From positions 1-18,661 of the IMG/VR virus record IMGVR_UViG_2541047899_000006: DNA of 18,661 nt; one strand, written 5' to 3'. The position numbers were made by a program, and so were the translations under genes. A model generated the notes under the pieces. That model was given only the letters and a program-made list of their open reading frames with translations. It was not told where the DNA came from and did not search any database. This document shows, one piece after another, positions 3,916-4,077 of this stretch; within the stretch, counting starts at the first letter, position 1; every line of letters starts with the position of its first letter. The stretch comes from a virus (Duplodnaviria; Heunggongvirae; Uroviricota; Caudoviricetes).

Positions 3916-4077
3916 ATGTTTGTGAAACCCCTGAAAGGGCGGTCGGTTCCTGACCCTGCCCGTGGAGATCTTTTGCCTTCTGACGGGCGAAATGTGGAAG
4001 AAAACAGCTACTGGCTCCGCCGTATAGCGGCGGGTGATGTGGTACGTGTTAAACAGGATAAGGCTAAAGAATCATGA
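3916..4077 (+). CDS. Small conserved phage protein (53 aa), translationally coupled to the tail sheath gene
   Basis: Not in the supplied ORF track (below its length cut-off). ATG at 3916, stop TGA at 4075-4077 overlapping the sheath ATG at 4074 (ATGA). Translation: MFVKPLKGRSVPDPARGDLLPSDGRNVEENSYWLRRIAAGDVVRVKQDKAKES. It resembles small proteins I recall upstream of sheath genes in Mu-like tail modules (possibly the DUF2635 family; unverified). Confidence 0.5.
   Translation: MFVKPLKGRSVPDPARGDLLPSDGRNVEENSYWLRRIAAGDVVRVKQDKAKES

Follow-up and report, generated by a model that had tools for sequence, protein, structure and literature searches.

The small gene and its family

The window analysed here, an 18,661-nucleotide (nt) stretch of the virus record IMGVR_UViG_2541047899_000006, comes from a phiP27-like prophage. 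This region shares 98% identity with the Stx2e phage phiP27 and was found in 51 of 5,426 complete Escherichia coli genomes. It combines an HK97-type head module with a complete Mu-type contractile tail module (tube, Phage_TAC_7, tape measure, DNA_circ_N, GpP, Gp45, GP46, Baseplate_J, Gp48 and fibres). The subject of this work is a small open reading frame (ORF) located between the genes of the tail terminator and the tail sheath, which starts with the ATG at 3916 on the + strand, ends with the in-frame TGA at 4075-4077 and encodes, as read from the window sequence, 53 amino acids (aa) in 162 nt. Coordinates and translation are identical to those given in a preliminary description of this DNA, and so is the overlap of the stop with the sheath ATG at 4074 (ATGA, 4074-4077). 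The TAA of the terminator gene (3904-3906) precedes the start of the small ORF by 9 nt. The features of the locus are collected in Table 1.

The window holds 145 ORFs of at least 40 aa, and an ORF of this length proves nothing alone, because such ORFs arise often by chance. This doubt is removed because homology settles the matter. The profile search with hidden Markov models (HMM) that the preliminary description had proposed as a check gave a full-length match to Pfam DUF2635 (PF10948), with 70.4 bits against a gathering cut-off of 26.6 bits (E=1e-19) over profile positions 1-45 of 46; it is the sole Pfam match of the protein, which also matches phrog_208 (E=5e-25), and to which no NCBIfam model corresponds. 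A word-indexed search returned 103 relatives in Enterobacterales, nearly all of them tagged PF10948, and an exhaustive profile search returned 2,220 clusters at 50% identity. Among close relatives, represented by 32 distinct core alleles, the variable sites are distributed 9/9/34 by codon position, and the pooled ratio of nonsynonymous to synonymous polymorphism (pN/pS) is 0.19 in frame; for the shifted frames it is 1.76 and 1.54. The frame, whose lack of conservation had been named as grounds for abandoning the gene, is thus conserved, and the pattern of variation indicates that the small gene is under purifying selection. Judged by its sequence, the ORF is almost certainly a genuine gene of the DUF2635 / Mu gp38 family, as the preliminary description had anticipated when it placed a real gene between terminator and sheath.

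The gene was already known, because records from the Prokaryotic Genome Annotation Pipeline (PGAP), from SfV and for Mu gp38 exist. PGAP calls the identical 162-nt ORF in E. coli genomes as a 'DUF2635 domain-containing protein', and the record of SfV orf10 describes it as 'similar to phage Mu GP38'; another name in use for the family is 'Mu-like prophage FluMu protein gp38'. The idea of an unrecognised gene must hence be given up. The expectation that automated annotation would miss the ORF holds for the phiP27 reference record of 2001, where no gene is annotated from P27p43 to the sheath gene P27p44, but not for PGAP; that a length threshold kept it out of the ORF track is plausible, the default of the ORF lister being 60 aa. 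As a discovery the gene is ordinary, because it is known and annotated by current pipelines, and the practical outcome is a correction of annotation: the phiP27 record lacks both this gene and the head-closure gene, and current pipelines call both. No paper mentioning DUF2635 was found in the literature searched.

A model computed with AlphaFold2 from an alignment of 119 sequences predicts for residues 1-45 a small alpha/beta domain (mean predicted local distance difference test score, pLDDT, 90.6; predicted template modelling score 0.71), followed by a tail whose sequence is variable and K/E/D-rich among homologues and whose pLDDT falls below 50 for residues 51-53. Trp33 is invariant among the 119 diverse sequences and present in the window protein, as are all positions conserved in at least 90% of them (P5, G8, D13, P14, P21, G24, V27, R35 and R36) and the G-D-V motif that is a trait of the family. 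The conserved arginines are R9, R16, R25, R35 and R36. Small folds of beta-beta-alpha-beta type (the B-domain of GINS, the N-domain of YqbF from a Bacillus subtilis prophage, the C-domain of lambda gpFI and the N-domain of ribosomal protein L9) were matched without significance; none of them has a sequence relationship to DUF2635, and a transfer of function from them is unsupported.

Table 1. Coordinates of the small gene, its parts and its neighbours in the window, and of long family members in other loci
Feature	Coordinates	Strand	Basis or remark
DUF2635 / Mu gp38-family gene, 53 aa	3916..4077	+	ORF, Pfam PF10948, phrog_208, PGAP, pN/pS
Predicted folded, conserved core, residues 1-45 (strand 2-5, short bridges, helix 31-39, strand 42-45)	3916..4050	+	AlphaFold2, alignment
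C-terminal tail, residues 46-53, predicted disordered, variable; its codons hold the sheath ribosome-binding region	4051..4074	+	
Shine-Dalgarno (SD) sequence of the sheath gene, TAAGG, inside the small gene	4059-4063	+	10 nt before the sheath ATG
Weak SD-like sequence of the small gene, AAGAG	3905..3909	+	6 nt before the ATG; overlaps the terminator TAA
Tail terminator gene (Mu gp37 / K type), upstream	3343..3906	+	Pfam Phage_tail_terminator, E=4.7e-30
Mu-type tail sheath gene, 498 aa, downstream	4074..5570	+	Phage_sheath_1, Phage_sheath_1C, Phage_sheath_domII; phrog_165, E=3e-217
Long DUF2635 proteins, 171-737 aa	L005 3036-4244; L006 1580-3793; L090 2958-3473; L091 769-1575		

Linkage to Mu-type tail modules and expression in tailocins

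The DUF2635 gene invariably accompanies Mu-type contractile-tail modules, in which it lies between the terminator and sheath genes. In a set of 80 viral loci selected by their sheath gene (41-100% identity to the Mu sheath), 79 have an ORF positive for the DUF2635 HMM immediately before the sheath gene; the remaining locus begins at the sheath gene, without upstream DNA, so that all 79 informative loci agree. A search begun with the small protein recovered the succession terminator, DUF2635, sheath, tube in Mu, in SfV, in Vibrio phage martha, in a Pseudomonas cluster and in two phages from metagenomes (L088 and L089), one of these loci having a head module of lambda/P2-like type. The synteny that the preliminary description proposed to check, a conserved small gene upstream of the sheath, is therefore found from Mu, SfV and Vibrio phage martha to every informative locus. 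The linkage holds across head modules of HK97-like, Mu-like and lambda/P2-like type, and the proteins of the sheath-linked loci measure 50-101 aa (median 63), which places the window protein at the short end of the family. The protein is 49% identical by tblastn to Mu gp38, whose gene lies between K/gp37 and L/gp39 with a 4-nt stop/start overlap as in the window; in size class, conserved residues and position nothing of substance distinguishes the two. In one mosaic locus (L020, IMGVR_UViG_2585427757_000001) the small gene is of phiP27 type (96%), while the terminator (69%) and the sheath (83%) are of SfV type. This arrangement implies a recombination breakpoint on either side of the small gene, which measures about 160 nt and was swapped independently of both neighbours.

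Since tailocins that lack a head retain the gene, it is part of the tail module and not of the head module. The 'prophage 01' of Pseudomonas fluorescens Q8r1-96 is a headless R-tailocin cluster of Rp4 type (prtR, holin, structural genes, lysozyme, cinA-recA), in which genes for capsid, portal, terminase and adaptor are missing. The structural part opens with a terminator gene (PF23840, E=8e-29) and a gene for a DUF2635 protein of 60 aa (E=1e-18), and the sheath gene is next. Each of the 12 strains bearing an SfV/Mu-like Rp4 cluster has the corresponding orthogroup, OG0000019 (Carim et al. 2021, Table S3, PMC8319346).

The same study provides expression data, obtained by multidimensional protein identification technology (MudPIT) on lysates that were 0.22-um filtered and then subjected only to a 30% ammonium-sulfate cut, so that hundreds of host proteins were present (PMC8319346). 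In strain Pse04 the DUF2635 protein was detected with 93.3% coverage, 69 spectra and a normalized spectral abundance factor (NSAF) of 0.026, next to the sheath (68.1%, 1115 spectra, NSAF 0.051), the terminator (79.4%, 152 spectra, NSAF 0.018) and the tube (56.5%, 40 spectra, NSAF 0.008); in Pse05 it reached 88.3% coverage with 38 spectra and an NSAF of 0.011, and for Pse06 the locus-tag counts imply that it was detected as well (PMC8319346). A 98-aa protein resembling tail assembly chaperones, encoded in the same cluster, was abundant too, with an NSAF of 0.054 (PMC8319346). Abundance in such a crude preparation is no proof of incorporation into the particle, because this chaperone-like protein was equally abundant. 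The tailocin mass spectrometry of Ghequire et al. 2015 was set aside, as it concerns P2-like Rp1 particles, which are of the wrong type.

Two separate observations were made on these tailocin clusters. In the unrelated Rp3 cluster a hypothetical gene of 221 bp, OG0000010, lies directly upstream of the sheath gene (Carim et al. 2021, Tables S2-S4), and its product in Pse04 (..._1005) is missing from the proteomics list, in which the neighbours ..._1004 and ..._1006 appear. The Rp4 terminator gene of Pse11 is truncated, with 350 bp versus 584 bp.

Possible roles in tail assembly

Structures of finished virions offer a second view of the protein. The cryo-electron microscopy (cryo-EM) study of Mu published in 2025, at 3.3-3.5 A, modelled portal, adaptor, terminator gp37, sheath gp39, tube gp40 and baseplate, while gp35, gp38 and gp41 could not be resolved (PMC11915804). 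In that structure gp37 caps both the tube and the sheath, the latter through its C-terminal hairpin, and the wording 'probably structural' in the study is taken from the gene map only (PMC11915804). The Mu terminator is deposited in the PDB (9khy and 9lj8, 'Probable tail terminator protein'), and no PDB chain is matched by the 53-aa sequence, the DUF2635 family profile, Mu gp38 or gp125 of Agrobacterium phage 7-7-1. The latter, a 68-aa protein, is the best Foldseek match of the predicted fold in a viral library (template modelling score 0.76, probability 1.0), has its gene between those of gp124 and the sheath gp126 (L093 21733-21939) and aligns in register with the DUF2635 motifs (hhalign, E=5e-5). 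Like the gene lying between gp18 and gp20 in phage Milano, it shares with DUF2635 the position, a similar size and the predicted fold, but identity is about 21% and the sheath lineage is a more distant one. gp125 is a probable divergent homologue of DUF2635, and PF10948 probably covers the family incompletely. The small Milano gene at the terminator/sheath junction is found at 13806-14003 of MK637516.

For these two phages the PDB holds 7-7-1 gp124 (9rks), the Milano 'tail-terminator gp18' (8fwe) and both sheaths, and gp19 is not mentioned in the two Milano structure papers. Caesium chloride (CsCl)-purified virions of 7-7-1, analysed by electrospray tandem mass spectrometry (ESI-MS/MS) against all six-frame ORFs, yielded 24 proteins, among them a 3.2-kDa protein, gp124, gp126 and gp127; gp125 is not one of the 24. 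The virion proteomics of SuMu was set aside as too coarse, being based on peptide-mass fingerprints compared with heterologous databases.

Some clues as to a partner come from sequence comparison in 70 diverse modules. Averaged over pairs, the sheaths share 47% identity and the DUF2635 cores 41%, compared with 31% among the tubes and 21% among the terminators. The constraint on the small protein is hence close to that on the sheath and much stronger than that on the terminator. In a mirror-tree analysis its partial correlations were weak and similar with the sheath (0.19) and the terminator (0.16) and absent with the tube (0.03). No fusion of DUF2635 to sheath or terminator was seen among the best 120 matches listed in a second profile search of a large database. 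The conserved N-terminal segment was also considered as a mimic of the N-terminal 'handshake' arm of the sheath, and was rejected as such, hhalign giving E=0.83 over 3 columns.

Because of its synteny, its retention in tailocins, its expression, its absence from virions and the partner clues, the DUF2635 protein may well be a highly expressed, transient factor of tail morphogenesis, which would act at the sheath or sheath-terminator step and would not be retained as an ordered component. According to this model, the small protein would be produced abundantly along with the sheath and would act in tail assembly, most probably on the sheath subunits. It may keep them competent for assembly, or block their premature self-polymerisation until they have been loaded onto the tube and the terminator has capped them, and would then be released, forming no stable, ordered part of the finished particle. 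Recombinant T4 sheath protein self-polymerises into polysheaths (PMC3004832), which is the kind of problem that a sheath factor could solve. A narrower version of the model, to be held more tentatively, makes DUF2635/gp38 a dedicated sheath chaperone, present in amounts comparable to the sheath and holding Mu-type subunits polymerisation-incompetent until they meet tube and baseplate. No dedicated sheath chaperone was found in the literature searched; if the narrower version were true, DUF2635/gp38 would be the first assembly factor of this sort described in contractile tails, and Mu-type tailocins could not be built without it.

Tail assembly chaperones are small non-virion proteins whose genes lie directly upstream of that of their client. 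The likeness of DUF2635 to them (lambda gpG/gpGT, Mu gp41, Phage_TAC_7) is a functional analogy only. Shared traits are the small size, the location in the tail operon upstream of the presumed client, the high expression, the absence from the virion structures modelled and the presence in crude tailocins. DUF2635 differs from them in that it has no sequence or Pfam relation to these proteins, another predicted fold and no programmed frameshift, and in that its presumed client is the sheath and not the tape measure. The gene was rejected as the tail assembly chaperone of the module itself, since its only Pfam match is DUF2635 and the real chaperone is encoded by a separate gene (5926-6255).

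Several points weigh against a transient factor. The co-evolution analysis fails to separate the sheath from the terminator as partner. The 7-7-1/Milano protein stays below the Pfam threshold for DUF2635, so its homology is probable but short of certain. Absence from cryo-EM maps is compatible with a component that is flexible, sub-stoichiometric, symmetry-mismatched or labile during purification, and the enrichment of a small soluble protein in an ammonium-sulfate cut could mean that it is attached to the particle. Finally, the architecture of the long family members suits an anchor that docks on the virion and displays a domain better than it suits a chaperone. In these few proteins of 122-737 aa the DUF2635 domain is N-terminal and is followed by a Pro-rich linker and extra modules, such as an fn3 domain in P0157 or an Asp-box-like motif 'SEDDGETFPW' in P0210. 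Their genes lie in neck or fibre contexts (neighbours being Ad1 adaptor, head closure, Neck1, fibre-like and Laminin_G_3 genes), and no sheath gene is adjacent in the long-form loci. The long forms are rare, as the best 120 matches listed in the second large search are all short, single-domain proteins.

Mainly because of this architecture, an alternative keeps a minor share of the probability, although we consider it unlikely on the whole: a structural protein, small and loosely held or of low occupancy, serving as a 'sheath terminator', a decoration or an anchor on the surface of the sheath or at the upper end of the tail, with its domain docked and its C-terminal extension pointing outward, which would be lost or averaged out in the structures. 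The variable, disordered tail would fit such an extension, the fusion of the domain to fn3 or large modules in neck and fibre blocks (in one case beside a lectin-like gene) would fit an anchor, the high abundance in filtered, 30% ammonium-sulfate tailocin preparations would fit a particle component, and the re-annotated Mu GenBank record names gp38 'putative sheath terminator protein'. However, that label carries no evidence note, a chaperone-like protein is as abundant in the same crude preparation, and the C-terminal hairpin of Mu gp37 itself caps the sheath. Moreover, Mu gp38 and the Milano/7-7-1 homologue are unmodelled though the flanking terminators and sheaths are modelled, and the homologue went undetected in purified 7-7-1 virions in which a protein of 3.2 kDa was detected. 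T4 gp15 and P2 gpS are larger, ring-forming proteins visible in virion structures. Their genes likewise lie near those of the sheath and the terminator in the tail module but, unlike them, DUF2635 has a core of about 45 residues, no Pfam or NCBIfam match to them and no density assigned in the Mu map. A sheath-capping ring of that type was therefore discarded, as Mu gp37 caps both tube and sheath and no PDB chain matches.

The preliminary description had offered two roles, one in sheath or tail initiation and one as a small virion protein. A tail role fits the retention of the gene in headless tailocins, while a small virion protein has become less likely in view of the Mu, Milano and 7-7-1 models and the 7-7-1 proteome. 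The protein stands beside every Mu-type sheath gene examined, is kept in headless tailocins, is abundant and, itself or as its probable divergent homologue, is absent from three cryo-EM virion structures. The gene would be worth keeping in the engineering of Mu-, SfV- or Rp4-type tailocins or in the reconstitution of tails in vitro.

A regulatory role, very improbable in our estimation, would place the function in the gene junction: translation of the small gene would deliver ribosomes to the sheath start, or a basic protein resembling the N-domain of L9 would bind the mRNA. The overlap or close abutment of stop and start is indeed conserved, and in 76 of the 79 sheath-selected loci the sheath gene starts at -4 to +8 nt relative to the end of the small gene. 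At the other end of the small gene, 7-9 nt separate the terminator stop from the ATG in 74 of 78 ORF-bearing sequences, which are those of close relatives and of the window. In every lineage inspected the final codons of the small gene include an SD-like motif for the sheath (GGAG in Mu, AAGGTG in SfV, AAAGGAG in Vibrio, AGGGAG in Pseudomonas, GGAGGA in L089, TAAGG in the window, and likewise in L088), which explains the K/G/E/R-rich C-termini of the family. The sheath SD of the window (TAAGG, with a spacing of 10 nt) is weak, and the conserved arginines would suit RNA binding. However, the overlap length varies, being 4, 11, 14 or 17 nt in close relatives and 1 nt or replaced by a gap of a few nt in more distant lineages (survey maximum 49 nt), and several lineages combine a strong independent SD with such a gap. 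Several further late-gene pairs of the window overlap likewise, and many other late genes are packed alike. The RNA structure of the junction is not unusual (z=0.31), and neither an Rfam match nor promoter-like or terminator-like sites were found in the interval. The amino acid sequence itself is conserved over the 2,220 clusters with a confidently predicted fold, the matches to L9 and similar folds are not significant, and an abundance near that of structural proteins is atypical for a regulator. The translational coupling to the sheath gene put forward in the preliminary description is thus plausible, but the ATGA overlap on which it was built is not special and represents routine packing of a late operon.

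That the ORF is a chance reading frame in an intergenic spacer, yielding no protein, as the abundance of comparable ORFs in the window and the blank interval of the phiP27 record might suggest, has a negligible probability in the face of the Pfam match, the thousands of homologues, the in-frame purifying selection and the detection of orthologues by mass spectrometry at 88-93% peptide coverage.

Other genes of the window

The second gene absent from the phiP27 record is a Phage_HCP head completion/closure ORF at 2440-2856 on the + strand (E=3e-20), in the gap between P27p41 and P27p42. PGAP names it 'phage head closure protein', with its start at the ATGA at 2440, and places the start of the following Neck1 gene at an ATG near 2822 and not at the GTG at 2783.

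The tail terminator carries the wrong label 'portal protein' in PHROG 209 and thence in several RefSeq phage records. The terminators so mislabelled are those of the window (3343-3906), of Mu (gp37, NC_000929) and of Vibrio phage martha (VPCG_00013, L004 1895-2485). The correct name is given by Pfam (Phage_tail_terminator), and the Mu protein has been solved as a tail terminator in 9khy.

In the tail module the Phage_TAC_7 chaperone gene (5926-6255) is followed by a gap of 85 nt and by the tape-measure gene at 6340; the Phage_TAC_7 homologue of Mu makes a verified -2 frameshift product, according to a note in its record. A 1,042-aa tail-fibre gene (14934-18062), with a prophage tail fibre N-terminal domain and fibre repeat, contains in antisense an ORF of 349 aa (14912-15961, - strand), which is probably a by-product of the composition of the fibre gene.

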